From the IMG/VR virus record IMGVR_UViG_3300044632_000832, positions 1 through 56,536 of that record: a stretch of DNA of 56,536 bases. One strand, 5' to 3'. The notes beneath the pieces are model-generated. The model saw only the letters and a program-made list of their open reading frames with translations. It made no database searches and was not told where the DNA came from. Below, in pieces: positions 6,549-54,261 of this stretch. The stretch's first letter is position 1, and every line of letters starts with the position of its first letter. The DNA is from a virus. Its lineage: Duplodnaviria; Caudoviricetes. The translations under genes and the position numbers were made by a program.

Positions 6549-6552
6549 AAGC

Positions 6553-27232: not shown

Positions 27233-27817
27233 ATGGCGTGTGGATTATGCCCTGGATATTTCAGTGTCTGGTACTTGAAGGACGTTGGTGAAGGCAGTCC
27301 CGACTTCCAGTGGATCCAGATCAGCAACATCGATTCTTGGACGCTGGACGCGAACGTACAGGAGGCTACCAAGAAGCGTACCTCCAGCACGAACGGTCTG
27401 GCTGTGAAGTTCTGCGAAGACATCGTGGACTACACCGCATCGGTGACGACCACTGTCTGTGAGACGGACTGGCTGTGGTGCCACATCCTTTCCGATTCTG
27501 GCAATAAGAATCAGATGTCAGACACCCGCGAAGGGTGGTGGTTCTTCGGATGGGGCAAGGACGGCACTTCGCCGGAAGCTCCTGATGGATGGACCACCAT
27601 GGAGATCGCGGCTTGGGAGGTCTGGCGAGCTGGCGGTGCGGAAGCAGGTCCGCATCAGGACAGCGGTGTTTTTGTTTACGGGAAGGTCGTTCCCGGCGGC
27701 ATTGGCGGCGACAACACGGCAACCGACCCAACGACGGCCACGTTTACAATCAACGTGTCCTTTGGGCCGATCCTGCCTGAAGTGAACGCCAGCTGCGATC
27801 TTGTTGCGCCTGAGTAG
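27233..27817 (+). CDS. Major tail tube protein (6 Cys)
   Basis: ISNIDSWTLD...TSSTNG pattern, AGGGAG RBS, synteny. Confidence 0.75.
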   Translation: MACGLCPGYFSVWYLKDVGEGSPDFQWIQISNIDSWTLDANVQEATKKRTSSTNGLAVKFCEDIVDYTASVTTTVCETDWLWCHILSDSGNKNQMSDTREGWWFFGWGKDGTSPEAPDGWTTMEIAAWEVWRAGGAEAGPHQDSGVFVYGKVVPGGIGGDNTATDPTTATFTINVSFGPILPEVNASCDLVAPE

Positions 27818-27838
27818 TAACCTTTTGGGAGTGGGGCT

Positions 27839-28306
27839 ATGAAACCGACTGGTGTTGACTTTGATGTCGTGATTGATGGTGAGAAGCAGACGTACTACAT
27901 CAAGCCTGATGTGTTCTCTGAGTCCACCATGACGAAGCTGGCCGCTTACGTTAAGGCGAAGCGGTCGGAGACTCGCAGGGAGATGCTCCGTGATATCGCA
28001 GATGCTTCCAAGGGATTGCCCGAGGAGGCCATCAAGGCGATGACACAGGAGGTGATCCGCAACGGGTTGGACAACGCCTCTGTGGACTACGAGACAGCCA
28101 TTCAGGCACTCCAGTCCGCCGATGGCGAGGGTCTGGCTATCGCCCTTGAGATGAATGTCGACGGCATTAGCTCTCGTCATGAAGCTCGCAAGGTGATGTC
28201 TGCGTACCCGAACGTGGCAGACTTGATGGCGAAGGTCGTGCAAGCTGGCATGACTGCCCTGGAAGCTGCGCAGGAGTATGACCCCAAAACCGGCCTGGGA
28301 AACTGA
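27839..28306 (+). CDS. Tail assembly chaperone (G)
   Basis: Between tube and tape measure; ends in slippery G GGA AAC TGA. Confidence 0.75.
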   Translation: MKPTGVDFDVVIDGEKQTYYIKPDVFSESTMTKLAAYVKAKRSETRREMLRDIADASKGLPEEAIKAMTQEVIRNGLDNASVDYETAIQALQSADGEGLAIALEMNVDGISSRHEARKVMSAYPNVADLMAKVVQAGMTALEAAQEYDPKTGLGN

Positions 28307-28536
28307 TCCCGCCCCGTGGTGATGGCGTGAAGTCCATGTCACGGGAGGAGGGAGACGTATCCCTCGCAAGGGAATACCACCTGTCACTGGACCAGATACG
28401 CGGGCTGAACCAGTACGACAAGCGATTGATGATGGGCTGGGTTCCCTTCAATCGAGAGCTTGCCGAAAAAGCTGCGGCTGACCATGTCTCTGGAATGATG
28501 GCATTGGTCAAACGCCACGGGGTCAAGCATGGCTGA
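28297..28536 (+). CDS. -1 frameshift extension of tail chaperone (GT)
   Basis: GGGAAAC at 28297-28303; -1 frame open through ORF 28327-28536. Confidence 0.75.
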   Translation, partial: GKLIPPRGDGVKSMSREEGDVSLAREYHLSLDQIRGLNQYDKRLMMGWVPFNRELAEKAAADHVSGMMALVKRHGVKHG

Positions 28537-31500
28537 AGAATTTGATCTGATCAGTGCGTTCATCTCTGTCTCGATACGCAAGCAGAGTCTTGAACAGGTC
28601 GAATCGCAGATCAAAGGAATAGCCGAAAGGCTGAAGTCTATCAAGGCGTCCGTTGGGTTACGCCTTGTTGGTCGCCAGGATTTTCGCAAGGAGCTTAAGG
28701 CATTCCTTGACAAGCTCCCGAAGGGCAAGGTCAAGGTCACGCCAGTCATCGACGGAAAGAAAGAATTCAATGATGCCTTCAGGAAGCTAAAGAAAGATGC
28801 TGGCGACAAGCCGATCAAGGCCACCGTCAAGATCGAGACTGGCGGTGCTGAGAAGGCGATCAATCAGCTAGTCGGTAAAGCCAAAGTCATTGCTACTGCC
28901 GCACGGCGTGCTGGCGAGGACATCGACAAACTCAATCGAGAGATTGAGCGATGGGGTAGGATTCGCGGCAGGTCTGCTGAAGCCGAGACTCTTCTCGGAA
29001 TTACTGGCAAGCCAAACTTCGGCAGCATGAAGCAGATCGAAGAAGTCAAAGCGCGAATGCGCTACTATGACAGTCTTCGTAGTCAGGCCGAAAGAATTTC
29101 TGAGCTAACTGCTGACATCCAAGACTGGGGAACTGGTCAGGGCAGGGCGCAGAAGGCTCAGGAACTTATCTCTAGGGTCGGAGCAAAGGGCTTCGGTTCC
29201 AGCGGTGACTTCCGTGCGATACTCCGCGAGATGCGTGCAGTCGACAAGGCGATTGCCAGCACCGAGAGGAAGGCTGAGGCGATCTCGTTTGCCAATAGCT
29301 GGGGCAAGGCTACAGGCAATATCGAGGCAGCCAAAAAAGCCATCGCTGATATAGAGTCCAAGGACTTCTTCAGCCAGAGAGATCTTGCTGCGGTTAGGGC
29401 GGTCGCCAGGGAGTACGACAAGATCTCCTCTGACGCCGAGAAGATCGCACAGCTGAATGCAAGGATCTCGGAGTTCGGTGAGAAGCCAGGGCGGCAAAAG
29501 GTAGCACAGGAGCTGATGACTCGCGTCAATGCTCCTGGGTTTGCCGTGGCAACTCAGTCAAACGCGGTGCTTCGAGACATGCGTGCTGCCGACAGGCAGA
29601 TTGCCAGCATGTTTCGCCAGAACGAAGCAGCTGCGTACCTGAACAACTGGCAAAGACTGAGTGGCAAGGTCAAAGAGACACAGCAGCTCTTGGAAATGGT
29701 GAACCAAACGAAGTTGTTCACCAAGGAAGATTTCGCCGCCATCCGCCAGATGACAAAGGAGATTGATCAGGTATCTGCCGCAGCAGCAAGGGCTCAGGCT
29801 GCATTAAACAAGGCCAGCAACCAACTGAAGATCATTTCCAAGCCAGACCCTCGGGCTATGTTCAAGTTTCGCTCTGACTTTGTGCCGATGCAAGACATTC
29901 TTGCAAACACAATGGATCTGGATGCGAAGAGGGCGCAGCAGCAGGCCGATGCGGAGAAGCAGCGACAGGACAATCTTAAGCGAACAGCAGCAAGGGCAGC
30001 GGCAGAGGGCAGGAAAACCGCTAATGAGTTCAGGGCGCAGAGGGCCAAGCGATCTATTGCACTGCGTGGTGCGTTGTTTGAGGCTGGCTTCGTTGCTGGC
30101 CCAGCTGCTGGCATCCTTGGAAACCTTGTCGGCGTCAGAAACCAAACAAGCACTTTCATACAGAACAGCCAGCTTGCCCAGCAGGCAGCGAGTAAGTTCC
30201 GAGTAAGCATCGGTGCGCTTGGCGCAACAGCTGGAGTCGCAGCGAGCGTTGTGACAGCTGCTGTTGGTGGAATCGTTGCTGTCTTTGGGCAAGCGTTTTC
30301 CGTGATAAGCCAATTCAATCAGCAGGCAATCGCTGGTCTAAAGGGCGCACTGAGTGCAGTGATTGGGCCAGCACTTGCTTTGTTCCAGGCAATTCGCGGA
30401 ATCGCAACCTACCTCCCGCTGGTGGCAGCTGGTATCGCGGGCTTCGTTGGCGAGACATTGACGAAGGCGACTGTGGAGTTTGACAAGATCCAGTCGCTGT
30501 TCAAGTTCACGTTCGCAGGTCAGGCGGCGTCTCAGCTCAATCTGGTTCGTCAGGTGAGCGACTCGTTCGGGTTGAGCCTCGATGCGTTGGCGGTTGGCTA
30601 TGGCAAGTTGGCGGCTGCTGCCAAGGACAGTGGCGTAACCCAAGAGGAGATACGCCAGCTATTCATCGGCACCTCGTCCGCTGCGGCAGTATTCAAGCTG
30701 AACCAGGGTGACCTGGATGGCGTGTTCCGCGCCTACCAGCAGATCATCTCCAAGTCGGTTGTCAGCTCTGAAGAGTTGCGGCAGCAGTTGTCTGAGCGGT
30801 TGCCTGCGGCATTCTCACTAGCCGCCAAGTCTCTCGGTAAGTCACAGCAGGATTTGAACGAAGCCTTGGCGAATGGTAGTGTCACGGCTGAGGAGTTTAT
30901 CCCTGCGTTCGGCAGGGCTCTGCGGCAGGCTTACGACCAGAACGCTTCTGGCATTGTCGACACTCTGCCAGCCAAGCTAAGTCGCCTGCAGAATTCGCTG
31001 CTCGATCTCCAGCGATCTGCCGAGGGTACTGATTTCCTTGAGGCGTTTGTTGACCTGAAGCAGGGGCTGATTGATCCGTTCATCAAGGATGGAGCGATCA
31101 AAGGCGCACTGAAGAATGTATTTGTCGAGGCTGGCAAAGCTTTCAGATTCTTCACTGCACAGATTCCTCTGGCAATCGACCTTCTGAAGGATGTTTGGCG
31201 AGCTGTGCGTCCGCTGGTGGAGGCGTTTGCCACGCTACAGTTGGTGTTCAGTGCGCTTGCCATTGCTGCTGCCAAGGAGTTTCTTGATGTACGCAGGAAT
31301 GCGGAAATAGGACTTGGTGACGCGATCCTGAAGGTTAAGGAGTTTTCCGACAACATCAAGTCCGCACTGAACCTCGACCTGTCTGACTTCAAGTCCATCA
31401 TGGGATTTGTCAAAGTAATCATCGAGAATTCGGAACTCGCATTGGCTGCTTTTCTAGAGGCACTCAACGGTGCGATCCGAGTGATTATTACGTTTGCATC

Positions 31501-32236
31501 AACCCTTTATAGCCAGATAATTCCGCTGATGTTCGAGCTTGGCGTGCAGATGGGCAAGGCCATTGGAAATGGGTTGATGATGGCCTTGACCGGAAGAGAT
31601 GACAGGCTTGAGAAGGCATTGAGGGAAAGGGCTTCCATCAACCAACGAATGCAGGGTGACGAACGCTCTCTGCTCCAGGGAAATCTATCGCCCCGCCTGA
31701 CTCAGCAGGAGAGGGGCGAGATGCGATCAAGGCTGCTGGAGTTGAATGCCGAGATTATGAGGATGGAAAAGGCTAGACGCCCAGGCGGGCTGTCTGGCTT
31801 GTTTGCTGAGTCGATTAGCCTTGCTAGCTCCAAGGCATTCGACGAGCTGTCTGGTATCAATCTCGAACCATTCGAGAAGATTGGTGCGCTGTCAAAGAAG
31901 GCCCAGGAGAATCTTGCCGAGGTGCAAAAGGAGCCGAAGCGAGATTTGTCCTTCCTTGAAATTGCACTGACGGAATTGAGGAAGTCGCTTGGCGCTGGTG
32001 CTGCAACCACATCTGATTTTGAATCGCAGTTCTTTGGCTTCGAGGAGTTTCAGCGATTCCTGCAAAGCGGTGAGCAGGTGCGTGTTGCAGAGAACACGCA
32101 AAAGATCTATGAAATAAACCAGCAGCAATTGGATGTGCTAAACAAGATGAACACGAACCAGGCGTCATTAAACAGCCTGCTAAATCTTGAGGGTGCTTAC
32201 ATGCGAGCCCCGTCTACCCTGCGATGGGAGAACTAA
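28529..32236 (+). CDS. Tape measure protein (0 Cys)
   Basis: 1235 aa helical; QIISKSVVSSEELRQQLSERLPAAFSLAAKSLG tape-measure motif; central hydrophobic segments. Confidence 0.92.
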   Translation: MAEEFDLISAFISVSIRKQSLEQVESQIKGIAERLKSIKASVGLRLVGRQDFRKELKAFLDKLPKGKVKVTPVIDGKKEFNDAFRKLKKDAGDKPIKATVKIETGGAEKAINQLVGKAKVIATAARRAGEDIDKLNREIERWGRIRGRSAEAETLLGITGKPNFGSMKQIEEVKARMRYYDSLRSQAERISELTADIQDWGTGQGRAQKAQELISRVGAKGFGSSGDFRAILREMRAVDKAIASTERKAEAISFANSWGKATGNIEAAKKAIADIESKDFFSQRDLAAVRAVAREYDKISSDAEKIAQLNARISEFGEKPGRQKVAQELMTRVNAPGFAVATQSNAVLRDMRAADRQIASMFRQNEAAAYLNNWQRLSGKVKETQQLLEMVNQTKLFTKEDFAAIRQMTKEIDQVSAAAARAQAALNKASNQLKIISKPDPRAMFKFRSDFVPMQDILANTMDLDAKRAQQQADAEKQRQDNLKRTAARAAAEGRKTANEFRAQRAKRSIALRGALFEAGFVAGPAAGILGNLVGVRNQTSTFIQNSQLAQQAASKFRVSIGALGATAGVAASVVTAAVGGIVAVFGQAFSVISQFNQQAIAGLKGALSAVIGPALALFQAIRGIATYLPLVAAGIAGFVGETLTKATVEFDKIQSLFKFTFAGQAASQLNLVRQVSDSFGLSLDALAVGYGKLAAAAKDSGVTQEEIRQLFIGTSSAAAVFKLNQGDLDGVFRAYQQIISKSVVSSEELRQQLSERLPAAFSLAAKSLGKSQQDLNEALANGSVTAEEFIPAFGRALRQAYDQNASGIVDTLPAKLSRLQNSLLDLQRSAEGTDFLEAFVDLKQGLIDPFIKDGAIKGALKNVFVEAGKAFRFFTAQIPLAIDLLKDVWRAVRPLVEAFATLQLVFSALAIAAAKEFLDVRRNAEIGLGDAILKVKEFSDNIKSALNLDLSDFKSIMGFVKVIIENSELALAAFLEALNGAIRVIITFASTLYSQIIPLMFELGVQMGKAIGNGLMMALTGRDDRLEKALRERASINQRMQGDERSLLQGNLSPRLTQQERGEMRSRLLELNAEIMRMEKARRPGGLSGLFAESISLASSKAFDELSGINLEPFEKIGALSKKAQENLAEVQKEPKRDLSFLEIALTELRKSLGAGAATTSDFESQFFGFEEFQRFLQSGEQVRVAENTQKIYEINQQQLDVLNKMNTNQASLNSLLNLEGAYMRAPSTLRWEN

Positions 32237-32237
32237 G

Positions 32238-33467
32238 ATGGCTGAGGTAGCTTACGGATTTGTGGTGGATGGGGCTCCGACAGAGCGGTACACCAGTGGC
32301 GGTGGCATGGAAGCAAGCGTCACTTTCTTCGGCCCAGCCTCCAACCGGATGCAGTTCCTTGAGTACATTTTCGGCAGGTGGAACTACGCAAACTGGGTTG
32401 CAGATCCAGGTGGAGATGAACCCACCGCCATGCTTCCAAGGGGCATCTGCTGGTCATCACTTCCGAGGCCATATGTTTCCTTAAGCGAAATTGTACTCGG
32501 CGAATGCTACCTTCCTTCCTATGCGGGAATTTCTCCAGCTGACACTGACGCACATTGTCTATGGCCTGACACATGGGAGGTTTCGGCGGCAGACCCAAAC
32601 TCAAAGCCGGAGTTTGTAGGCTGCGTTGATCCGATCTCTGATGATCCAGAAGAGCGGCCTATGTACAGGCCAATCGACTACAGCTGCAGCTGCTACGTTA
32701 CGGTTCACTACCGGCACAAGCACAACGGCTGCTGGCCCCTGCCGCATGTGCGCAGGTATGGAGCAACCAGCGATGGTGGTGTACCGGACGTTCCCGCTGG
32801 GACTTACATCGATGTAAAGACGAGAACATCTGGCGAAGTGCAGACGATTGAGGGGCAGGGTCTTAAATTCGGCAATCCTGGTGCCGCCGGGCCTTCATCT
32901 ATCCCTGGTGCATCATGGGAAGATCCAACCGCCACGCCAACTACGCTACCTGCTGGAGTTGGCATTGGAACGATAGTGTCCACTACGCAGATGGACATCA
33001 CTTGGTCTGGCGTTCCATTCCCACCATGGGAGGTAATCGACGACCTGAGAGGGCGTGTTAACAAGGCACCTTTTCTTGGCAACCCAATAGAATCAGTCTG
33101 CTTCTTCGGTGCGGAGTTCACGACACAGGGAAGCTTCGGCTGCGTCACCCTTTACAACATCCATTATTCCTTTGTGATCAAGACTTCATCGGTTTTTCTT
33201 GAGTCGTCCCCAACGCCTCTTGATTATGAAAACTCAAAAATGATCGCGAATACGTCGCAAATTGGGATATGGAATCGTCGCGCTTGCATTAGCTCCATCA
33301 AGTATGGGAATTCAATCGTGACAAACTATGTGCCGATCTTTACCAAGAACGGAGACACCACACCATTCCGACTTGACGACGGCCTGTACTCATTCTCTGA
33401 TCTGTTCCGTATGAGGAACGGATCTAACGTGCTTACAAGTACTGCATCGGCTCTGGCCTGCACATAA
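32238..33467 (+). CDS. Tail tip/distal tail protein (11 Cys)
   Basis: Immediately after tape measure; GRVNKAPFLG...VCFFG motif. Confidence 0.65.
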   Translation: MAEVAYGFVVDGAPTERYTSGGGMEASVTFFGPASNRMQFLEYIFGRWNYANWVADPGGDEPTAMLPRGICWSSLPRPYVSLSEIVLGECYLPSYAGISPADTDAHCLWPDTWEVSAADPNSKPEFVGCVDPISDDPEERPMYRPIDYSCSCYVTVHYRHKHNGCWPLPHVRRYGATSDGGVPDVPAGTYIDVKTRTSGEVQTIEGQGLKFGNPGAAGPSSIPGASWEDPTATPTTLPAGVGIGTIVSTTQMDITWSGVPFPPWEVIDDLRGRVNKAPFLGNPIESVCFFGAEFTTQGSFGCVTLYNIHYSFVIKTSSVFLESSPTPLDYENSKMIANTSQIGIWNRRACISSIKYGNSIVTNYVPIFTKNGDTTPFRLDDGLYSFSDLFRMRNGSNVLTSTASALACT

Positions 33468-33477
33468 GAGATCTGCC

Positions 33478-35907
33478 ATGGCAATCATCAAAGGTCGCGG
33501 ATACCTCGGCAGTGCCAACCAATTTGGTGTTGGCCCGGCCATGGGGCAGGAGCTAATCCGCAAGGCGCAGGAGCATCTGTCGACTGGGAACGGGTCAAAG
33601 CTAATTGGCCCGAACATGGAGGCCATTGTTGCTGACATTCAGAACAATGGGTTCTTCTTTGCTGTGCCAACGCAAGTCATTGATGAAGCGGTGCAGGACC
33701 AGTCTTCTGGAGAAGCTGGCTATTTCAAGTACTACGCTTCTAGTGGCAAGGGTGTCCATGTCAGCCTGGGTGTTGTCAATAACACATGGCACCAGATTCA
33801 GTCTGCGCCGAACCCACCGGCAAATACTATCGAGTATGTGATGGACAAGAATACCGTAGGCGATCTTCCAGAGGTCGACCTGTGGAACACGCACAATGGC
33901 ATGTGGCTGTGGGCCAATGTTGCCTACAAGTTCACGCTCGACCCTGAGTCTGGCAGGTTCATCCCAATCGACTTGCCGATGCAGCCAGTTATCACTGCCA
34001 GAATCTATCAACAAGACATTGCCTTTGGGGGCTACGGCACTGCTCAGGTCTACTTTAACGGCGTTCCATTTGGCTCAAAGTTCATTACTGTCTACCACAC
34101 TTGGGTGAAATTTGGAGAAGACCTTAAGGCAGGTTCGGACGTATTTGTCCAATGGTTCCCTGAGCGAGGTGCCTACACGGCAGGGCAGTGGGTGGTTGTT
34201 GGTGCAAATGCGGAGACACAGACGGATGTGATCATCGCGGAGATCACTGCCAGTCCTGGTGTCGATAACTGCGGATCGGTAAGCAGGAGCCCCGTCTGCC
34301 TCTATCCTGCACGGAGGGTCGCCAACAATCCAGCGGCAGCCACGCAGTGCGACGACACACCGTGGACTGGCATCGAAGAAGAGATCTATCTGGTCGATAT
34401 CACCGGATGCGATCCGGTAACGACACTCAAGAAGGGTGATCGATACCTTGCGAAGAGGCTGGGGATTATCACTCTAGGTGGGCAAGAGCGAGAGCTTTAC
34501 GCCATCCGTGGTGACAAGTCCTCCACCTCGGTGAAGGTCATCGAGATTGACTATGACGAAGAGGGTACGGAGAACTGCCAGACCGTCCAGACCAATGATG
34601 GCTGTGTCTACGGGGCGATCATCTCCAACAACAGCCTTGGCGACCAATGCTCCGGCCAGTGGTCTGCTGGCGATCTTGTCTGGGCAATCAACGTAGCAGC
34701 CTGCAATCAGCCATCGTCTGTCAAGCGTGGCGACCGATTCGTTGGGCTTGGTCTTGGCAGCCTCACGGTGGGAGGCGAGACGCGGGAACTCTACGCCTTC
34801 CGGCATGTGGACGGCGGCGACCAGACCAAGATCGTCACTGTGCTTCCCTATGCCAGTCAGCCCCTAGCCTGCCAGACCATCGATCCGGCGGCTCCGGCCT
34901 GCATCCTCAATGGCAGGATCTCCAGTGCGCTGGCCTTCGGGGATCCTGACGAATTCGGCAACGAGTGCAACGTCCAGAACTGGACCAACGAGGATGAGAT
35001 CTGGGTCATCAATCTCGCCACCTGCGGGGACAAGGTGCAGATCCCATTCGGCGAGCGGTTCATCGGCCAGTACATCATGGACTATGAGCATCAGGAAGCC
35101 ACCAAGCCGCTCTATGCGATCTACTACCGTCCTTCATCCGCAGGCTCTAGTGCGATTGTCGCGGTGAATGTGATTGGCCCCGAGAGCTGCCATCCGATCA
35201 CACCCAACAACAGCTGCGTCTACCCTGGCAATCTGATCTTCAATGGTGACGATGAACCGGATGTCTGCCAGACCGACAACTTTGTTGAGGGGGCTGACAT
35301 CTGGATCGTAGATGTCGCCAGCTGCAACGACCCTGGATCCATCCCCAACGGAGAGCGGTTTGTCGGACACAGGCTGGGATACCATACCCACGCTGGTGAG
35401 ACGCTGCCCCTGTATGGTATCAAGCATGTGCCTGCTAACATTGGCGTGTCTGGTGCGTACTTTGATACTGGCTTCTTTGCTTCACCTGGACAGTTCGTGG
35501 ATGTCTTGCCAGGATTTGAAACCATCGAGCTTTTCGGAGCGTCGGGGCTGTCAATAGATGCCAGTTTCATTCGCAATACATCAGGAACGGCGATAAGGTA
35601 TGCGGTTAATGCTGAGATCTTTTTTGATTTAGGCAGCGCAGTTGTAGGCGTTACTGAGTGCCTTTTCGCCAGCGGACAAGTCGGGCTAGGAAACGGATCC
35701 GGTTCAACTGTGTTTACGGACTACAGGTTCAATGACCACCTCGACACAAATCTTTGCGGAGGGTGGGGAGATCCAATACTCTGGTCTCATCGTCATGCCT
35801 GCCTATGCAGTATCATCCAGCTACAGCCTAACGAATTGGTGAGCGGGTTCATGAATGGAAGCGGAGGAAGTGTCCGCATTCGCGGCACGTTGACTAGGCT
35901 CGCATAA
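33478..35907 (+). CDS. Tail-tip/fibre protein with four ~100-aa 4-Cys repeats (20 Cys)
   Basis: Repeats ending G(D/E)R(F/Y)...LY(A/G); last large gene of tail module. Confidence 0.75.
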   Translation: MAIIKGRGYLGSANQFGVGPAMGQELIRKAQEHLSTGNGSKLIGPNMEAIVADIQNNGFFFAVPTQVIDEAVQDQSSGEAGYFKYYASSGKGVHVSLGVVNNTWHQIQSAPNPPANTIEYVMDKNTVGDLPEVDLWNTHNGMWLWANVAYKFTLDPESGRFIPIDLPMQPVITARIYQQDIAFGGYGTAQVYFNGVPFGSKFITVYHTWVKFGEDLKAGSDVFVQWFPERGAYTAGQWVVVGANAETQTDVIIAEITASPGVDNCGSVSRSPVCLYPARRVANNPAAATQCDDTPWTGIEEEIYLVDITGCDPVTTLKKGDRYLAKRLGIITLGGQERELYAIRGDKSSTSVKVIEIDYDEEGTENCQTVQTNDGCVYGAIISNNSLGDQCSGQWSAGDLVWAINVAACNQPSSVKRGDRFVGLGLGSLTVGGETRELYAFRHVDGGDQTKIVTVLPYASQPLACQTIDPAAPACILNGRISSALAFGDPDEFGNECNVQNWTNEDEIWVINLATCGDKVQIPFGERFIGQYIMDYEHQEATKPLYAIYYRPSSAGSSAIVAVNVIGPESCHPITPNNSCVYPGNLIFNGDDEPDVCQTDNFVEGADIWIVDVASCNDPGSIPNGERFVGHRLGYHTHAGETLPLYGIKHVPANIGVSGAYFDTGFFASPGQFVDVLPGFETIELFGASGLSIDASFIRNTSGTAIRYAVNAEIFFDLGSAVVGVTECLFASGQVGLGNGSGSTVFTDYRFNDHLDTNLCGGWGDPILWSHRHACLCSIIQLQPNELVSGFMNGSGGSVRIRGTLTRLA

Positions 35908-35920
35908 GCGGGGGAATGCC

Positions 35921-36139
35921 ATGGGATGTGGGTGCCAAGGCGGTAAGAAGAAGGAGGCGGCAGCGATGTCACCTCCGGCGGCAAGCGTGAAGGTGCGGTT
36001 GATCAACCACTCACAAACGCCTGATGCGTTAGTGGGCAAGTCGACAGCCAAGAACTATGGTCGATTCAAGAATGGCGACCGCATCACAATCCAGCGGATT
36101 GACTACGAGGCGGAGCCGGAGAAGTTCGTGCTGCTATGA
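35921..36139 (+). CDS. Small protein with N-terminal GCGC (CxC) motif
   Basis: GGGGGA RBS; MGCGCQGGKKK. Confidence 0.7.
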   Translation: MGCGCQGGKKKEAAAMSPPAASVKVRLINHSQTPDALVGKSTAKNYGRFKNGDRITIQRIDYEAEPEKFVLL

Positions 36140-36462
36140 TCGCCGAGATGCTGATGCTGTCGCTTGCTGTGTGGCGTCTCAGCTACATGATTACGAGCGA
36201 GGTGGGGCCAGCCAGGATTCTGGAGCGATTCCGAACGTGGGCTGGTGTCGTCGTGGACCGGTTGGACGATGGAACCGAGGAGGTGATTGCGTCTCCAGGC
36301 ACACTTGCTGACCTCGTTACTTGCCAATGGTGTGCCTCGGTATGGCTGGGCATGGCGGTAGCCTTACTCCACGCGGTGAGCCCACGCATATGCTGGGTTA
36401 CCGCCATGCCATTCTTTCTTTCGGCAATGGCACTAGGCTACGCAAAGCTCATGGATCGCTGA
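36136..36462 (+). CDS. DUF1360-like membrane protein with CxxC
   Basis: LAVWRLSYMITSE..P...FR...GTLADLVTCQWCASVWLG; three hydrophobic segments; ATGA-coupled. Confidence 0.75.
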   Translation: MIAEMLMLSLAVWRLSYMITSEVGPARILERFRTWAGVVVDRLDDGTEEVIASPGTLADLVTCQWCASVWLGMAVALLHAVSPRICWVTAMPFFLSAMALGYAKLMDR

Positions 36463-36505
36463 TGCCGCCTATCTCCACATCAGATAATTTATTTTTCTTC
36501 TTGGC

Positions 36506-36534
36506 TTGCTGACCTGGTCGTCGGTCGGTAGATT
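36506..36534 (+). promoter_or_regulatory. Sigma70-type promoter for replication block
   Basis: TTGCTG-N17-TAGATT with upstream AT-rich tract (36484-36500). Confidence 0.6.
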
Positions 36535-36563
36535 TCTCCGCACGACAGGACGAGGAGACAGCC

Positions 36564-36908
36564 ATGGCGAAGAAAGAACCGCTGCGGAAGCGGTACTCAG
36601 ATCTTAGTGAACCGATCCTTCAGTATGCAGCTTTGCGTCAAATGGGATGCAGCTGGGCTGAAATCGTTCATGCACTGCGAGTCGATGATGTCGACGGCGT
36701 AGAGTTGGGAAAGCTCGACCTGATGGTTTGCGTGTGGCATGTGATGCAGCATGGGTTGCCGCCGACTGTCTTTGTCGATGTCCCGTCTCCTGTTAAATGC
36801 CCACGCTGCGATGCAATGGTGCAAGCTGTGCCATGCCGCAAATGTGTAGTAGAGGGAGCGTGGCCCTCTGGTCTCGACGATCTTCCCCCGGACGTTGAGA
36901 TTTTCTAG
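36564..36908 (+). CDS. HTH-like protein with C-terminal zinc finger
   Basis: GAGGAG RBS; GCSWAEIVHAL; KCPRC...PCRKC. Confidence 0.6.
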   Translation: MAKKEPLRKRYSDLSEPILQYAALRQMGCSWAEIVHALRVDDVDGVELGKLDLMVCVWHVMQHGLPPTVFVDVPSPVKCPRCDAMVQAVPCRKCVVEGAWPSGLDDLPPDVEIF

Positions 36909-37621: not shown

Positions 37622-39151
37622 ATGGATCTGTGGCCGCATCAGGTTCGTATCATTGGTGCCATCGAGGACAGGATGCAGTCCAAGGGGCATCGGCTCCTGA
37701 TCTCTGCTCCGACCGGGGCTGGCAAGTCTCGGTGCATGCTGGAGTTGTTCAAGGCGAACAGGCATCGGAAAGCCTGTCTCTACACCCACCGGCGGCTATT
37801 GCTCGATCAGTTGGCCCAGAACCTTCAGGATGCAGGTCTGGAGTTCGGGCTTCGTGCTGCAGGACACGACACGGATTACTCGAAGAACCTCCAGCTGTGC
37901 ATGATCCAAACGGAACACAGCAAGCGGGAGGATCGCGGCCTGCACGACGCAGAGCTGGTGATCATCGACGAGGCCCATGTGATCAAAGCCTCCATGGCGG
38001 AGGAGATTGTCTCAGAGCATGTCGATGGTGGCGCGTTGATTGTTGGCTTCACTGCCACGCCACTCGACCTCGGACACATGTACGACGAACTCTTTGTCGG
38101 TGCCGCCAACAGCCAGCTACGGGCCTGCGGAGCCCATGTGCCTTGCTACCACTATGCTCCCGACTCGGTGGATACCGCGAAGCTGAAGCGGCAAAAGACC
38201 GGCGAGTACTACCAGGGCGACGTACTGCGGGCGATCATGACGCCGACCATCATTGCCAGGGTGGTTGCCAACCACAAGCTACTGAACCCGGAGCAGCGGC
38301 CTGCAATCCTGTTCGCCCCAGGTGTCAGCGAGTCTCGTTGGTTTGCGGAGGAGTTGTGCAAGGCTGGCATTGAGTCGGGCCACATCGATGGCGAGTACAT
38401 CTGGATGGATGGCAAGACTGTCCCCAATACGACGATGTACCGAGAGGAGTTTCTTGGCAAGCTGCGGTCAGGCGAGATGAAGGTGGCGTGCAATCGATTC
38501 GTCCTGCGAGAGGGCATCGACGTACCGGAGCTGTATCACGCCATCTTTGCGACTTGCTTCGGGTCGCTGCAAAGCTACCTGCAGGCAGGCGGTCGTCTGC
38601 TGCGATCTCACTCGTCACTTAGTCATGTGATCGTGCAGGACCACGGCAACAACGTGCTGACACATGGCAGCTTGAACGCGGACAGGGAATGGGAGCTGAC
38701 GGCCACAGCTCAGAAGACGCTCTCCCAACGCATTGAGCGACTGAGGGAGCAGAAGGAAGAAGAGCCCATCATCTGCACAGAGTGCTTCGGCATTCGAGCA
38801 GGTGGACCTAGATGCCCTATCTGTGGGCATTGCGAGAACCGCAGGGTGAGAAGGGTTATCGAACTGGATGGCTCTCTGAGGATGGTGGAGGGACCACTCT
38901 ACAAGCCGATGAGGGTGGACAGGAAGCCAGGCTCGCTGGAGCGGTGGAAGAAGATTTACTGGCGGGCCAAGAATTCCAAGAACATGACGTTCCGGCAGGC
39001 CAGGTCACTTTATGCCAAAGAGAGCGGCGACTGGACCTACCCGAGTGCCTTCCTGCCGCTGATGCCGATTAACCCGGAGGACATGGTAGAGCGGGTACGC
39101 GATCTGCCATCGTGGAAGCTACGTCAATCGACAATGGAGGATGCTCAATGA
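37622..39151 (+). CDS. SF2 DEAH helicase (RadD/YejH-like) with zinc ribbon
   Basis: APTGAGKS, IIDEAH, FTATP, EGIDVP, QAGGRLLR, CTEC..CPICG. Confidence 0.9.
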   Translation: MDLWPHQVRIIGAIEDRMQSKGHRLLISAPTGAGKSRCMLELFKANRHRKACLYTHRRLLLDQLAQNLQDAGLEFGLRAAGHDTDYSKNLQLCMIQTEHSKREDRGLHDAELVIIDEAHVIKASMAEEIVSEHVDGGALIVGFTATPLDLGHMYDELFVGAANSQLRACGAHVPCYHYAPDSVDTAKLKRQKTGEYYQGDVLRAIMTPTIIARVVANHKLLNPEQRPAILFAPGVSESRWFAEELCKAGIESGHIDGEYIWMDGKTVPNTTMYREEFLGKLRSGEMKVACNRFVLREGIDVPELYHAIFATCFGSLQSYLQAGGRLLRSHSSLSHVIVQDHGNNVLTHGSLNADREWELTATAQKTLSQRIERLREQKEEEPIICTECFGIRAGGPRCPICGHCENRRVRRVIELDGSLRMVEGPLYKPMRVDRKPGSLERWKKIYWRAKNSKNMTFRQARSLYAKESGDWTYPSAFLPLMPINPEDMVERVRDLPSWKLRQSTMEDAQ

Positions 39152-39438
39152 ACCGGAAGTACCACACCAGGGCCAGCAAGAACGGCTTCTTTGCTTACGA
39201 GACCGATGTCGGCCTAGTAGCTGCCGCCGCTCAGATGTTTGCCCACTGCGGGAGCGGAGAAAAGCTCCGTTCCTATGCCGCTAAACTAGCCAGGGAGAAC
39301 GTGTCGGATCACGACCGCCAGCTGCTCGGTGCGATGTATGCCGCCAAGCGACAGATACTGATCGCACTGGGAAGCTGGGAGACGAAGGATGGACAGCTGC
39401 AACTGGATGGAGCCCCCAGCTATGAGCCAAACACTTGA
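39148..39438 (+). CDS. Hypothetical protein
   Basis: GGAGG RBS, ATGA-coupled to helicase. Confidence 0.55.
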   Translation: MNRKYHTRASKNGFFAYETDVGLVAAAAQMFAHCGSGEKLRSYAAKLARENVSDHDRQLLGAMYAAKRQILIALGSWETKDGQLQLDGAPSYEPNT

Positions 39439-40225
39439 GCATGCACTTGCCTATCTTGACATGGGACTCGCTGTCATTCCCATTGGCAGCGAAAGTAAGA
39501 TCCCGATGATCAAATGGAAGGAATACCAGACCAGATTGCCCACCCACGCAGAGGCGTCTAGCTGGCCCTGGGAGGGCATCGGGATGCTGACAGGTGCCGG
39601 AAGTGGCTATGTGGTCGTGGACTGCGATACACGCGAAGCTGGAGCCTTCTGGAGCCGTTTTAGGACCAGCACTCCCATGATCTGTCAGACGAAGCGTGGA
39701 TTCCACTTCTATTACCAGATGACCACCCCCATCCGCTCGGATGTTGGCATCCCCCTTTCGGGGGGTCTGTCGTACGACGTTAAGGGGGTGTCGAGCTACG
39801 CCATTGTGCCGCCAACAAAGGGCTACCAGTGGCTGCATGGGATCTACCCGGCAGACCAGCTACCCCGATTCAACGCCAGTTGGAGGCCGGATCGGAAGTC
39901 GGTTGCTGGTCCTGGCGGTGGGTATAATGTCAGCACGCGAGGTGGGGTCTATGCTCTCGGCCAAGTTGAAACGCTCATCCTGAACACAGCGATACGGGAC
40001 GCAGCTAATGGACGAAACCTCGCCGGATTCCGAGCGGCTATACAGCTCAGGGACAATGGATTTCCCATTGAGCATGCTCAAAGAGTTCTTGAGCAATTCG
40101 TCTGCGTCGTCGGGAACTACGGATCAAGCCGCTACACATCTGAAGAAGCCAGGCATTCCGTGCGAAACGCCTACTCACGCCCAGCCCGCTCACCATGGGA
40201 CTCGCTGCGTTCGTCTGTTCAATGA
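39422..40225 (+). CDS. Bifunctional DNA primase/polymerase (Prim-Pol) with PriCT-like C-terminus
   Basis: ALAYLDMGLAVIP, KIP..KWKEYQ, GIGMLTG..VVVDCD, TKRGFHFYY, GRN..GF. Confidence 0.88.
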   Translation: MSQTLEHALAYLDMGLAVIPIGSESKIPMIKWKEYQTRLPTHAEASSWPWEGIGMLTGAGSGYVVVDCDTREAGAFWSRFRTSTPMICQTKRGFHFYYQMTTPIRSDVGIPLSGGLSYDVKGVSSYAIVPPTKGYQWLHGIYPADQLPRFNASWRPDRKSVAGPGGGYNVSTRGGVYALGQVETLILNTAIRDAANGRNLAGFRAAIQLRDNGFPIEHAQRVLEQFVCVVGNYGSSRYTSEEARHSVRNAYSRPARSPWDSLRSSVQ

Positions 40226-44310: not shown

Positions 44311-44874
44311 CTACCACTTCGTGTTTTCTAGTTCATTCAAACGCTCTGTCGGATCCAGTTCCAACAGATAGATGCCAGTCGTCGTCACCTTGGTATGACC
44401 CAGCTGGCCCTGGATCAGGTCCATCCGTACGCCACCTCGGAACATGTGACTCGCTCCGCTGTACCGCATCTGGTGTGTGTGGATGCGCTTGTCGATACCC
44501 GCCTTATTGGCAAGCATCTTGTACGTCTTGTTGCAGTTGGTCTTGTCGAGGTGCGCCCCCTCCGGTGTGCAGAAGATCGGTGCCTTGGGGCCGAGGTCGC
44601 CACGGTACTGAAGCCAGTGATCCAGCTCACGCCGTGCATCTTCCGGCACATGCACCGTCCTGCTCTTGCCGCCCTTGCCGTTGCGGATCAGCAGGCAGTG
44701 CTGGTCCTTGCGGTAGTCCTTGGGCATCAGGTGCAGTGCCTCGCTAATGCGAAGCACGCATCGGTACTGGACGTAGATCAATGCCCTGTTCCGCTTGCCT
44801 GCAAACGACCTGCGGCAGCAGGCCATCATCATGCCGACCTCTTGGACGGTCAGAACCTCTCGTATCCATTTCAT
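44311..44874 (-). CDS. Minimal tyrosine recombinase (catalytic domain only, 187 aa)
   Basis: LRISEA (R), GKGGKSR (K), HQMR (HxxR), LGH, TTGIY (Y). Confidence 0.88.
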   Translation of the reverse strand: MKWIREVLTVQEVGMMMACCRRSFAGKRNRALIYVQYRCVLRISEALHLMPKDYRKDQHCLLIRNGKGGKSRTVHVPEDARRELDHWLQYRGDLGPKAPIFCTPEGAHLDKTNCNKTYKMLANKAGIDKRIHTHQMRYSGASHMFRGGVRMDLIQGQLGHTKVTTTGIYLLELDPTERLNELENTKW

Positions 44875-45769: not shown

Positions 45770-46009
45770 TTACTGTTCGTTGGCATACGGATCTTCGTAT
45801 GCCCACTGGCACAGCCATGCGGGAGGAACCTCCAGCACTTCAGCCAACTTTCCCACGAACGCCAGCGAAGGCTCCTTCTTTCCCTGCTCCACCTCGGAGA
45901 CGTAGGACTGGCAGCTCTGAATTCGCTTCGCCAGCATATCCTGGGACATGTTCACTTCTTTCCTTCGAGCCGCCACATAGGCACCAAGTCGCTTGATATC
46001 AATATTCAT
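45770..46009 (-). CDS. XRE-family HTH regulator
   Basis: RRKEVNMSQDMLAKRIQSCQSYVSEVEQGKKEPSL...LAEVLEV. Confidence 0.85.
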   Translation of the reverse strand: MNIDIKRLGAYVAARRKEVNMSQDMLAKRIQSCQSYVSEVEQGKKEPSLAFVGKLAEVLEVPPAWLCQWAYEDPYANEQ

Positions 46010-46019
46010 CGCAGCACTC

Positions 46020-46427
46020 CTATTCCAAGATCTCGATTTCACCCTTAACCGTCGTTGCTCCCTTGCGAGGAGCCTTCGGCATGGCATCCAACGCCTTCTC
46101 GACCATGCGGTCGACTTCCTCGTCGACATCACCCAGCAGGTTGTCGATGGTCTCGGCATTGCTGGGATCCATGCAGAACGCGACCGCCTCGATAGCCAGT
46201 TGGGTGGCGGCCTGCACATCCTTGTTGCTGCTGTGGTACGCGATCCACTTCGCGACCTTGAGCCACGGCACCGAAGCCGTAGGCCGGACCATGTAGTCCT
46301 GGCCCTTACTGATGCTGGCCTTCACTCGGAGGGTAATCACCTGATCCACCTCGTACTTGCCAGCGGTCAGGTCCGGCAGGTCTTTTGCCAGCAGCTTGCC
46401 AATCGCCACCATCGATGCATTGTCCAT
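46020..46427 (-). CDS. Hypothetical protein
   Basis: AAGGA RBS; directly downstream of consensus promoter. Confidence 0.6.
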   Translation of the reverse strand: MDNASMVAIGKLLAKDLPDLTAGKYEVDQVITLRVKASISKGQDYMVRPTASVPWLKVAKWIAYHSSNKDVQAATQLAIEAVAFCMDPSNAETIDNLLGDVDEEVDRMVEKALDAMPKAPRKGATTVKGEIEILE

Positions 46428-53475: not shown

Positions 53476-54261
53476 CTATCGCGAGTACTCAAAATTCACG
53501 CCCGCCTTGCGGAGCCGGTACACCGCCTTACCCGCCTCGGAACCCTTCGGCTGCGTCCCGTGGATCAGGAGCGCGAAGGTTCCCTTGTCGGGGTTAGCGG
53601 CATGGCTGTCGTCGTGGTCGATTTCCAGGCCGAGCCGTTCCGCCTCTTCGACCGAGTACACCACCACCGAGTGCTTTAGCCCATACTCCTCGATCATGTC
53701 GTCGCGTCGCCCGCCCTTGCTGGCCGTCAGGCTGAGGTTGGCGGGGATCTTCCCCATCATGTCGATCCAGTAGGGGAGCGACTTGGTGTAGGCGTAGAAG
53801 TGGCGGTCCGGGTGACATTGTGCCACCGAAATCCACGCCCTGAAGTAGGCGGGGCTGAAGAAATCCCCGCTCACATGGATTCGTACAATCCCCGCATCAT
53901 CGGGCAGGGCTTCTAGGATCTGGTCGACCATCGCATCGACGGTGTGACAATCCCGCAGGATGTCGAAGTTACCCTTGCGGAGCCGGTACACGTTCGGATA
54001 GCTCACTTCCTCAGAGGCGGAGAAGCATCGGAACACGGTGTCTGGCCCATCCTGCACCCGGACGGTATCGACACCGTCCACCGTCACGGGGACTGCCCGA
54101 CTCATGCACTCGTTGGCGAAGGGACAGGCCCATCCTGCCAACGTATCGAACGAGTACACCTTGCGTCGCCCGTGGGCAGCCGTGGGCTGCAGGTACTTCT
54201 GCGCCCATTCAGCCTTCGCGAGACGACGCAACTTGGCATTGGCATTGGAAAACTTCAGCAT
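53476..54261 (-). CDS. Gp88-family (radical-SAM-like) phage protein, first clear early gene
   Basis: NAKL, AGWACPFANEC...CFSA, VRIHVSGDFFS..Y..AW, FYAYTKS. Confidence 0.75.
   Translation of the reverse strand: MLKFSNANAKLRRLAKAEWAQKYLQPTAAHGRRKVYSFDTLAGWACPFANECMSRAVPVTVDGVDTVRVQDGPDTVFRCFSASEEVSYPNVYRLRKGNFDILRDCHTVDAMVDQILEALPDDAGIVRIHVSGDFFSPAYFRAWISVAQCHPDRHFYAYTKSLPYWIDMMGKIPANLSLTASKGGRRDDMIEEYGLKHSVVVYSVEEAERLGLEIDHDDSHAANPDKGTFALLIHGTQPKGSEAGKAVYRLRKAGVNFEYSR

Follow-up and report, generated by a model that had tools for sequence, protein, structure and literature searches.

What could a tailed phage do with a small membrane protein bearing a CxxC motif, whose gene overlaps that of an even smaller protein starting with a cysteine pair? 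The question is raised by a locus in a 56,536-nt stretch of viral DNA (Caudoviricetes; IMG/VR record IMGVR_UViG_3300044632_000832), hereafter the window, the genome of which seems nearly complete. A first-pass annotation interpreted the two genes as a disulfide-forming module in the manner of DsbB and VKOR, which would close the structural operon and oxidize the Cys-rich virion proteins of the phage. The membrane protein was assigned there to DUF1360, a large family without an assigned function, which a full-text literature search traced to just 2 papers, without a functional account in either. The present analysis yields a testable handle on this family, that is, an invariant CxxC predicted to face the cytoplasm and a partner coupled to it.

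Two overlapping genes after the tail genes

The ORFs and the direct reading of the sequence bear out the layout described at first: a 72-aa protein starting with MGCGC and a 108-aa membrane protein are encoded one after the other, and the ATG of the second ORF overlaps the TGA of the first (Table 1). The 72-aa ORF has seven related proteins (57–100% identity) and the DUF1360 ORF has six (70–98% identity); therefore, both are real genes and not chance frames. The scan for close relatives recovered one sister contig among the viral contigs, and no relative was found among the genome contigs scanned with alignment A1.

The tape-measure gene (28529–32236) lies upstream of the pair and is followed by two large tail-region genes; the immediate upstream neighbour encodes an 809-aa tail-region protein. 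After the gap behind the pair come the gene for a 114-aa Cys4 protein and then the replication module. The position after the tail genes agrees with the earlier proposal that the pair closes the structural operon. However, the scan predicted no terminator on the plus strand of the 101-nt gap, and the closing of the operon is consequently a matter of gene order.

Table 1. Coordinates of the features at the two-gene locus, numbered from the first letter of the window
Feature	Position	Strand	Basis or remark
G-rich Shine-Dalgarno-like run, 6–11 nt ahead of the 72-aa gene start	35910..35915	+	direct reading
Gene of the 72-aa Cys-pair protein	35921..36139	+	ORF; begins MGCGC; 7 relatives
C3-G4-C5 codons (Cys pair of the small protein)	35927..35935	+	sequence reading; conserved in relatives
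Predicted beta domain, residues 22–72 of the 72-aa protein	35984..36136	+	AF2 model, hhalign
ATGA start/stop overlap (translational coupling)	36136..36139	+	direct sequence reading
Gene of the 108-aa DUF1360 membrane protein	36136..36462	+	ORF; PF07098 30.6 bits vs cut-off 21
C63-Q-W-C66 codons, CxxC at the N-terminus of helix 64–81	36322..36333	+	family-invariant
101-nt gap up to the next gene	36463..36563	.	ORF list, sequence reading

A membrane protein with an invariant CxxC

The assignment to DUF1360 (PF07098), proposed at first without a search, holds at a score above the Pfam cut-off (E 3.6e-7), and the match spans residues 7–99 of the 108-aa protein on profile positions 1–95 of 102. Up to E 1, Pfam returned no family other than DUF1360, phrog_781 was matched at E 2.4e-9, and 122 of the 124 aligned relatives also match the DUF1360 profile. 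At E ≤ 0.001 the family has 1165 representative clusters, and its members are spread over phages of several phyla and occur also in bacteria, including sporulation-associated ones, as well as in contigs of candidate-phyla-radiation MAGs.

Based on an alignment of 151 sequences, consisting of the window protein and the best 150 of the 1165 representatives, C63, C66 and G24 are present in all members, and R14 (146), E22 (139), P25 (148), R33 (147), S68 (140) and S96 (147) are near-invariant. The 124-row alignment likewise shows both cysteines of the CxxC without exception, and the window protein has this CxxC together with all of the R, E-x-G-P, R and S motifs of the family. As had been noticed, T62-C63-Q64-W65-C66 opens a hydrophobic helix and a third cysteine follows at position 86, yet C86 is not conserved across the family, where Thr or Ala is commonest at this position. 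Another member, gp79 of Microbacterium phage Pumpernickel (phrog_781/DUF1360, annotated as ‘membrane protein’), shares 28.6% identity with the window protein and has the same length, helices and CxxC; its gene is located in the terminase-portal interval, whereas the window copy follows the tail genes.

Then, is this protein a phage DsbB or VKOR? There is some likeness in outline, since each of them is a small membrane protein in which a CxxC opens a membrane helix close to a conserved Arg, and a second Cys pair could feed the CxxC, which in the DUF1360 system would be supplied in trans. However, DsbB is built as a bundle of four helices and has two Cys pairs on the periplasmic side, VKOR combines a four-helix core with a CxxC and a Cys pair in a loop, and the CxxC of both is oriented opposite to the cytoplasmic side predicted for DUF1360. 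The AF2 model of the window protein (pLDDT 94.9) contains three long helices beside a short amphipathic one, and one Cys pair, with helices at residues 2–21, 25–35, 57–62, 64–81 and 83–107 and a hairpin at 38–52. Judged from this model and the alignment, DUF1360 appears to lie outside the four-helix, two-pair definition of DsbB, and it differs from VKOR in helix number and Cys count. The Pfam scan, run up to E 1, matched neither DsbB nor VKOR, and the profile of the 124 sequences (A3) returned 0 matches among PDB sequences at E up to 1. Another profile (A5) matched PDB sequences solely over a helix-hairpin-helix extension of some relatives, which falls outside the part shared with the window protein.

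Foldseek of the model against the PDB gave no match within E ≤ 0.001, the best having an E of 1.8, and the top hit of a wide VIA fold search was an adenovirus protein (Z 5.2, 66 residues aligned, rmsd 3.0), which is at noise level for helical proteins; neither DsbB nor VKOR was among the 50 matches listed. The look-alike search in the ESM Atlas returned only unnamed viral clusters (0.80–0.83), below the useful range. The proposed likeness to DsbB and VKOR is thus not supported by these sequence searches or by the fold matches listed. In addition, a prediction by the positive-inside rule places the CxxC on the cytoplasmic side, as the loop 22–62 plus C-terminus is richer in Lys and Arg than the opposite side in all of the 124 sequences (mean 5.45 vs 0.38).

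A cysteine pair on a flexible tail

The 72-aa protein is composed of a flexible basic N-terminal tail, with the Cys pair right after the initiator Met, and a small beta domain; in its AF2 model the pLDDT is about 50 for residues 1–20 and about 95 for residues 22–72. The Cys pair, one of the features first singled out at this locus, is kept in the relatives. No hydrophobic signal could be read by eye in the protein. A lipoprotein or o-spanin was considered and rejected, as the protein lacks a signal peptide and a lipobox; its cysteines come already at positions 3 and 5, with no hydrophobic segment in front of them. With tblastn, the protein found no match in 50,697 phage records.

The beta domain aligns with the C-terminal domains of glycosyltransferase fusions (hhalign probability 86%, E 4.8e-6, 29 columns). 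It also resembles, though weakly, the B-domains of GINS proteins (Foldseek E 0.066, probability 0.99, TM 0.48–0.64; VIA Z 4.5), and on these models it is perhaps best treated as a generic small beta domain. Membership in DUF7196 (PF23826), a 68-aa family of unknown function, was considered and rejected, as the score is 13.1 bits against a cut-off of 27 bits and covers residues 1–35 only. The start of that profile is weakly matched by the Met, the Cys pair and the basic stretch (the first 20–35 residues), and the rest of the profile has no match to the beta domain. The same weak match, below the 27-bit cut-off, is found at the nested start in the glycosyltransferase gene of locus L006 (15.2 bits, profile positions 1–20).

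Recurrence of the pair in unrelated phages

In search of the same arrangement elsewhere, 80 viral loci fetched with an 11-sequence DUF1360 subset alignment (A4) were compared together with the window (81 sources), using crude ORF calls. A Cys-pair protein is encoded within 5 kb of DUF1360, usually directly upstream, in 65 of the 81 sources; it should be noted that these loci are mutually related and were all fetched via DUF1360 motifs, with no matched DUF1360-free phages as control. The linkage holds for 27 of 40 clusters at 60% identity. The family with the CxC and beta domain is present in 26 of the 81 sources and a second Cys-pair family, with a C-terminal CGC motif, in 39, and the two do not overlap; 12 of the beta-domain matches are outside the set used to build the HMM.

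The partner takes three forms: the standalone protein of the window, a domain nested in a glycosyltransferase gene, and a 112–142-aa protein encoded between terminase and portal. The last context is that of phage Pumpernickel and 39 related loci, where DUF1360 also lies between these two genes. The three architectures are unrelated, the terminal Cys pair present in all being the only feature common to the recurrent partner, and most of the partner genes overlap DUF1360 by 1–4 nt. The Cys pair stands at the start of the beta domain in 24 of the 26 HMM hits, with variable spacing (CxC in 16, CxxC in 4 and CC in 4), and a Met precedes it in most partners.

The nested form is a gene within giant phage glycosyltransferase genes that was previously unnoticed. 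Here, the Cys-pair beta domain lies in frame at the 3′ end of a triple glycosyltransferase gene (GT4+GT2+GT2). All 21 fused forms have an in-frame ATG, GTG or TTG located 1–4 codons ahead of the first Cys, and all 21 of these nested starts have a Shine-Dalgarno-like motif 5–16 nt upstream, whereas the remaining in-frame start codons of these ORFs carry such a motif in only 96 of 1033 cases (9.3%). Therefore, as far as the sequences indicate, the standalone Cys-pair form is probably made everywhere.

Disregarding two isolated weak matches (TerL to L080 and a 176-aa ORF to L018), DUF1360 is all that the window has in common with these loci, so the pair moves as a module. The first-pass annotation had treated the two genes as a functional pair, and this treatment is justified by the linkage of both gene kinds across many otherwise unrelated phages. 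Based on this joint recurrence, the two gene products probably work together on the inner side of the cell membrane.

A possible thiol contact at the membrane

How could such a pair work? We propose that the two genes would make up a conserved module of two parts, working on the cytoplasmic side of the inner membrane. DUF1360 would be a small three-helix membrane protein, with its CxxC at the cytoplasmic end of helix 2, at the entry into the membrane, adjoining the invariant polar residues R14, E22, G24-P25, R33, S68 and S96. The 72-aa protein would be cytoplasmic, with its disordered basic Cys-pair tail and its compact beta domain. The tail Cys pair may engage the membrane CxxC from thiol to thiol, via a shared metal ion, a mixed disulfide or group transfer, and the beta-domain protein would be held or activated at the membrane as a result. 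Elsewhere, where the beta domain is the C-terminus of the giant glycosyltransferase, this enzyme would be membrane-held too.

Such a hand-off or tether is, in our opinion, a serious possibility that still falls short of being probable; the contact between the two Cys pairs and the recruitment to the membrane are, like the topology, inferred. Cytoplasmic partners for the CxxC are supported by the GT4+GT2+GT2 domains of the fusions and by the 72-aa protein having no hydrophobic signal. However, the variation among CxC, CxxC and CC spacings is a poor fit to one fixed metal-site or disulfide geometry. A complex prediction with DUF1360, the 72-aa protein and Zn scored 0.19/0.17 against a mark of 0.32, which the tool grades as no answer. 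The closest analogy to a tether may be the zinc clasp of CD4/CD8 and Lck, in which a CxC and a CxxC jointly bind one zinc and tether a soluble protein to the cytoplasmic tail of a membrane protein. Nevertheless, that clasp is eukaryotic and without homology to the present system, and the CC and CxxC spacings of the partners misfit a single clasp geometry. If the hand-off or tether is true, it would explain how phages place soluble enzymes, and possibly packaging or assembly factors, at the membrane.

Alternatively, DUF1360 could represent a new class of small membrane thiol enzyme at the cytoplasmic face, which would covalently modify the N-terminal Cys pair of a dedicated phage partner by oxidation, as the entry into a phage-encoded cytoplasmic disulfide relay, or by lipid attachment. 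In the latter variant, a protein without a signal peptide would become membrane-anchored. We regard such an enzyme as rather unlikely. If it exists, a function would be assigned to a family of over a thousand representative clusters, and, with either chemistry, a machinery dedicated to thiol modification would be described in tailed phages for the first time.

Other explanations

Does DUF1360 need the partner at all? It may act alone in phages, in the same role as its cellular homologues, for example a lipid or metal function of the membrane, and the Cys-pair proteins would then be mere neighbours. The CxxC is kept in the absence of a Cys-pair neighbour in 9 of the 11 cellular or MAG loci with DUF1360, and therefore it must have a partner-independent role. 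In addition, 16 of the 81 viral sources have no recognisable Cys-pair partner within 5 kb, and methyltransferase, epimerase or phosphodiesterase-like genes intervene between the glycosyltransferase-CxC gene and DUF1360 in several loci. However, a terminal Cys pair in three unrelated partner architectures, mostly with short overlaps, and the joint travel of the pair into otherwise unrelated genomes both argue against a mere neighbourhood, and we consider solitary action in these phages fairly unlikely.

According to the first-pass annotation, DUF1360 would be a quinone-coupled thiol oxidase with the CxC protein as its shuttle, introducing cytoplasmic disulfides into Cys-rich virion proteins. 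The motif itself suits an oxidase, as the invariant CxxC marks the N-terminal end of a helix at the membrane interface, and an invariant Arg as well as aromatic residues lie equally deep in the membrane. The partner is also suitably built, for its Cys pair on a flexible terminal tail is arranged like the shuttle cysteines of Erv-family oxidases, whose position and spacing vary between members. These oxidases, together with the poxvirus E10/A2.5/G4 relay, a virus-encoded cytoplasmic thiol system, resemble the present pair in having a CxxC served by such a tail. In contrast, Erv proteins are soluble FAD-binding helical bundles, and DUF1360 has no detected homology to them and no evident flavin or cofactor site. 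The three helices and the single Cys pair of the model, the lack of likeness to DsbB, VKOR or any solved structure in the above searches, and the CC spacing in 4 of 24 partners also speak against an oxidase. Furthermore, DUF1360 occurs in contigs of candidate-phyla-radiation organisms, which to our knowledge are generally without quinones.

The cysteine contents bear on the proposed substrates. Some virion-region proteins of the window are indeed Cys-rich (14 Cys in a 459-aa ORF, 13 in a 426-aa ORF and 20 in the 809-aa ORF), and in the glycosyltransferase-context loci the gene after DUF1360 encodes a Cys-rich soluble protein of about 420 aa. However, the helicase (2.6% Cys) and the integrase (3.2%) of the window are as Cys-rich as the tail proteins, the portal has 1.0% and the tape measure has 0, and by our own tally the window proteins with at least 4 Cys show no clear bias to even counts (16 even, 12 odd). 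The supposed co-occurrence with Cys-rich virion proteins fails as a general rule, since the terminase/portal-context loci carrying the module have only 0.84% Cys (range 0.60–1.06, 7 loci). The usual neighbours of the module are glycosyltransferase or terminase/portal genes, and not capsid, tube or Cys-rich virion genes. The partner genes and their neighbours thus give no specific pointer to virion disulfides, although they leave room for a cytoplasmic thiol relay, and an oxidase serving the virion proteins is improbable. A 2026 paper (PMC13576161) states that phage-encoded disulfide machinery has not been described to date, and the pair, if redox-active, would be the first.

A holin or another lysis function of DUF1360, with the small protein as a regulator, was named as an alternative from the beginning. 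Its size of about 105 aa and its three membrane helices, with the N-out/C-in layout predicted from model and charge bias, are compatible with a class I holin such as lambda S without being holin-specific, and the gene lies near the end of the late genes, behind the tail genes, where lysis cassettes often sit. Also in favour of this reading, no endolysin or holin family was detected among the 45 window ORFs scanned (ten by Pfam only and nine by PHROGs only). However, no endolysin is adjacent, the neighbours being the 809-aa tail-region protein and the replication module here, and terminase and portal genes or glycosyltransferases elsewhere, and the family is also present in cellular genomes. 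Polar residues and a CxxC that stay invariant over 151 sequences, as well as a structured 41-residue loop, are unlike known holins, and the C-terminal tail is short and weakly charged. A lysis role is therefore highly improbable.

Equally doubtful is the handling of a soft metal as in MerT/MerP, in which the membrane protein would pass a thiophilic ion to a small Cys-pair acceptor: the sizes and layout are similar (MerT has about 116 aa, three helices and Cys pairs, and MerP about 72 aa), two-coordinate metal binding tolerates variable Cys spacing and a Met precedes most of the Cys pairs, but no Pfam match to the MerT, MerP or HMA families was obtained, the fold predicted for the beta domain is not that of HMA, the glycosyltransferase or packaging contexts offer no evident reason for metal handling, and the conserved Met can be accounted for more readily by a start codon that has a ribosome site of its own.

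Gene organization around the gene pair

The window represents a tailed, probably temperate phage, the temperate lifestyle being suggested by an integrase-family ORF together with a repressor-like HTH protein. A sister contig of 56,244 bp, 97% identical to the window, runs from window position 34938 round to about 35255, so that its two ends overlap over this interval (comparison of the window with loci L002, L095 and L096), which indicates a genome of ~56 kb that is circularly permuted or terminally redundant. The window is thus probably a nearly complete genome, despite the CheckV estimate of 59%.

As the first-pass annotation had described, a 72-aa ORF with the N-terminus MGCGC is joined by an ATGA overlap to a 108-aa ORF. 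The pair lies directly after two large tail-region ORFs, and is followed by a 101-nt gap and the replication module. Both genes are real and conserved. In a large protein collection, 7 relatives of the 72-aa protein (57-100% identity) and 6 of the 108-aa protein (70-98%) were found, and C3 and C5 of the former are retained in all rows spanning the N-terminus (7 of 8, the eighth being a shorter gene call).

Features of the window and of the compared loci (L numbers), with cysteine content where calculated
Source	Feature	Positions	Strand	Cys (%)	Remark
Window	Terminase large subunit	6553-7995	+		
Window	Portal	7992-9503	+	1.0	
Window	459-aa ORF	11078-12457		3.1	
Window	Fibre or beta-helix genes		+		Several
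Window	Tape measure	28529-32236	+	0	
Window	Large tail-region ORF	32187-33467	+	3.1	426 aa
Window	Large tail-region ORF	33478-35907	+	2.5	809 aa
Window	Alternative-frame ORF	33896-34108	+		70 aa
Window	Cys-pair protein	35921-36139	+		72 aa
Window	DUF1360 protein	36136-36462	+		108 aa
Window	First gene past gap	36564-36908			114 aa
Window	Helicase	37622-39151		2.6	Replication module
Window	Primase-polymerase	39389-40225			Replication module
Window	Phage integrase family ORF	44311-44874	-	3.2	186-aa call may be short
Window	Repressor-like HTH protein	45770-46219	-		
Window	Pfam GP88-family protein	53476-54261	-		
L083	Pumpernickel locus	27251-33094			
L006	Soluble protein after DUF1360	5963-7189			
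L016	Soluble protein after DUF1360	5288-6544			
L024	Soluble protein after DUF1360	5296-6567			
L025	Soluble protein after DUF1360	5328-6605			
L015	12-codon ORF	4897-4935			

The DUF1360 membrane protein

The assignment of the 108-aa protein to DUF1360 was borne out by a score of 30.6 bits against the Pfam cut-off of 21, and the protein also matches phrog_781. Searching 1.84 billion representatives with a profile yielded 1165 family proteins at E <= 0.001. When the window protein was aligned with the best 150 of them, C63, C66 and G24 were found in 151/151 rows, followed by P25 (148), R33 and S96 (147 each), R14 (146), S68 (140) and E22 (139), while position 65, between the cysteines, is aromatic in 131. 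The CxxC is present in every family member examined; C86, the third cysteine to which attention had been drawn earlier, is not conserved. The same invariant columns appear in a 124-row alignment, 122 members of which match PF07098.

An AlphaFold2 model built on the 124-row alignment is confident (pLDDT 94.9, pTM 0.81). Helix 2-21 leads through a turn at the E-x-G-P motif into a short helix (25-35); a beta hairpin (38-52) and a further helix (57-62) come before two long helices (64-81 and 83-107), which are separated by a one-residue turn, and the CxxC is at the exact N-terminus of helix 64-81. Lys plus Arg average 5.45 in loop 22-62 plus the C-terminus and 0.38 in the N-terminus plus the 82-84 turn, the former being the richer side in 124/124 sequences. 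The positive-inside rule therefore predicts a cytoplasmic location for the loop, the CxxC and the C-terminus, irrespective of whether helix 1 spans the membrane completely.

The DUF1360 protein combines three long helices with a single conserved Cys pair; the cores of DsbB and VKOR have four helices, and these enzymes carry two Cys pairs and active sites that face the periplasm. The likeness to these enzymes that had been supposed was not recovered: a Pfam scan at E up to 1 returned DUF1360 alone, no PDB sequence matched the 124-sequence profile at E up to 1, Foldseek found nothing in the PDB at E <= 0.001 (best E 1.8), and VIA, run exhaustively over 48,161 chains, reached Z 5.2 at most, with unrelated proteins leading and neither DsbB nor VKOR among the matches listed.

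Linkage of DUF1360 to Cys-pair proteins

A motif scan of viral contigs with an 11-sequence DUF1360 sub-alignment gave 90 relatives, of which the best 80 were kept; by our own ORF calls, the DUF1360 ORF was located in 79 of these loci and in the window. The loci and the window form 40 clusters at 60% identity. A single Cys pair recurs in the gene just upstream of DUF1360, on the same strand, in three architectures: (a) a standalone small protein with the pair immediately past Met, as in the window; (b) glycosyltransferase ORFs (855-1050 aa) with GT4, GT2 and GT2 domains, whose last 120-200 residues are made up of the Cys pair, a stretch rich in Gly and Lys and a beta domain, to which some ORFs add a helix-hairpin-helix; and (c) proteins 112-142 aa long in which a CGC motif is conserved ~23 residues from the C-terminus. 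What these three unrelated partner architectures, all genetically coupled to DUF1360, have in common is solely a terminal Cys pair; the partners are cytoplasmic-type proteins.

In the AlphaFold2 model of the window 72-aa protein, residues 1-20 are disordered (pLDDT ~50) and residues 22-72 form a confident small beta domain (pLDDT ~95) with a weak likeness to GINS B-domains; the protein has a sub-threshold DUF7196 match over its first 35 residues only (13.1 bits, cut-off 27). Its beta domain and that of architecture (b) are probably homologous, judging from an hhalign comparison (probability 86%, E 4.8e-6, 29 columns). When all ORFs were searched by HMM, the beta-domain family was present in 26/81 sources and family (c) in 39/81, without overlap. 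Therefore, a Cys-pair partner occurs in 65/81 sources, or 27/40 clusters, and a 28th cluster (L010) carries the beta domain by eye; in the other 16 sources no recognisable partner was found within 5 kb. Twelve beta-domain matches come from loci outside the HMM training set, in several of which 1-3 genes lie between the glycosyltransferase-CxC gene and DUF1360. By sequence or motif, these genes resemble methyltransferase, sugar epimerase/dehydratase and phosphodiesterase; a family search bore this out for the epimerase type alone, at another locus. Besides DUF1360, the window has only two single weak matches in common with the other loci, so the pair behaves as a portable module. In locus L015, 65 nt ahead of DUF1360, there is a 12-codon ORF that starts Met-Gly-Cys-Asn-Cys and may be a truncated remnant or frameshifted copy of a small Cys-pair gene.

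The DUF1360/Cys-pair genes are a real, undescribed conserved module, and its linkage, together with the nested start within phage glycosyltransferase genes, constitutes the strongest new fact.

Nested start in the glycosyltransferase genes

In 24 of the 26 beta-domain matches, the matched domain opens with the Cys pair. All 21 fused ORFs of at least 300 aa (19 distinct; loci L003-L009, L012, L016, L018-L025, L038, L039, L044 and L052) have an in-frame ATG, GTG or TTG that precedes the first Cys by 1-4 codons and the stop of the GT4+GT2+GT2 ORFs by ~120-200 codons. In 21/21 cases this internal start is preceded, at 5-16 nt, by a Shine-Dalgarno-like motif, compared with only 96 of 1033 (9.3%) other in-frame start codons of the same ORFs. 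In L006, a weak DUF7196 match (15.2 bits, profile positions 1-20) falls exactly on the nested start. The simplest reading of these sequence signals is that a short protein would be made by internal initiation in the glycosyltransferase-fused phages; the predicted product, starting with Met, a small residue and the Cys pair, would be the equivalent of the window 72-aa protein.

Genomic contexts

In the Microbacterium phage Pumpernickel, the annotated genes 75 to 80 encode terminase, an HTH protein, a CGC protein, a 'terminase, ATPase domain' protein, a membrane protein (the DUF1360 member) and portal. Apart from the extra ATPase-domain gene between the CGC-motif protein and DUF1360, this order is conserved in 39 metagenomic loci, homologues of gp76, gp77 and portal flanking DUF1360 in 39 loci each. 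In this lineage DUF1360 is start/stop-coupled to the portal gene; the arrangement hints at a head-assembly or packaging role at the membrane.

At family (b) loci, the triple glycosyltransferase and DUF1360 are accompanied by a nucleotide-sugar epimerase and an endonuclease VII-like gene; directly after DUF1360 comes a Cys-rich soluble protein (~420 aa), and then a BNR-repeat protein (~500 aa; in the three loci checked, L006, L024 and L025). The soluble protein is conserved (~410-430 aa), with Cys clusters in 3/4 examples and a Pro-x-Cys-x-Cys motif near the C-terminus in 4/4, and had no family match in any of the four.

Eleven cellular loci (Saccharibacteria, Anaerolineae, Bacillota, Peribacteria, Marinilabiliaceae, Shouchella, Pseudonocardia and unclassified MAGs) all keep the CxxC; a Cys-pair neighbour is absent at nine, and only one (L084) has an upstream glycosyltransferase with a Cys pair. 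B. subtilis also has a DUF1360 match, probably YjcA, a protein mentioned in the literature together with sporulation. Full-text searching turned up two papers that name DUF1360 and one that names PF07098; of these, a bioRxiv preprint on B1-cluster mycobacteriophages does no more than note a DUF1360 membrane protein, gp7.

Possible function of the module

We suggest that the flexible Cys-pair tail of the partner would meet the cytoplasm-facing CxxC of DUF1360. The two Cys pairs might share a metal ion, for which the CD4-Lck zinc clasp is a model; they might form a mixed or relayed disulfide, as modelled by the Erv-family tail shuttles; or a group might be transferred onto the partner Cys pair. 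The partner spacing varies (CxC 16, CxxC 4 and CC 4 of 24), which argues against a single rigid geometry. We tentatively favour, at somewhat less than an even chance, a hand-off or tether that would bring the beta-domain protein, plus the glycosyltransferase where fused, to the membrane.

Partner-less cellular homologues argue for an intrinsic role of the CxxC. Action of DUF1360 independent of the Cys-pair proteins is a reading that we consider unlikely.

The mechanism proposed by the first-pass annotation, that the pair oxidises the Cys-rich virion proteins of this phage, is possible, but we rate it lower still and do not favour it. Window proteins average 1.58% Cys, with values for individual proteins in the table. 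Pooled over 5-kb flanks with crude ORF calls, at DUF1360 loci only, Cys content is 1.64% in 23 family (b) loci, 1.73% in 12 partner-less loci and 0.84% (range 0.60-1.06) in seven family (c) loci, which include terminase, portal and adjacent head genes. Therefore, the module also occurs outside Cys-rich phages, and the family (c) loci run counter to a tie with Cys-rich structural proteins.

A holin role could be entertained, since scanning 45 window ORFs with Pfam and/or PHROGs gave no match to an endolysin, holin or spanin family and brought no lysis gene to light, but the conservation pattern and the other genomic contexts of DUF1360 make it very improbable; metal handling by the module is equally hard to credit.

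Other Cys-containing genes of the window

The 809-aa protein contains 20 Cys and, by eye, ~4 internal repeats of ~110 residues with conserved Cys positions; it had no Pfam or PHROG match, and is possibly a receptor-binding or tail-tip protein. An alternative-frame ORF inside its gene starts Met-Ala-Cys-Gly-Cys-Gly, has neither the basic stretch nor the beta domain, and probably arose by chance. The first gene past the gap encodes a protein whose 6 Cys include two CxxC pairs; its rubredoxin-like match is weak and below the cut-off (E 0.018), and it is probably a small zinc-ribbon protein heading the replication module.
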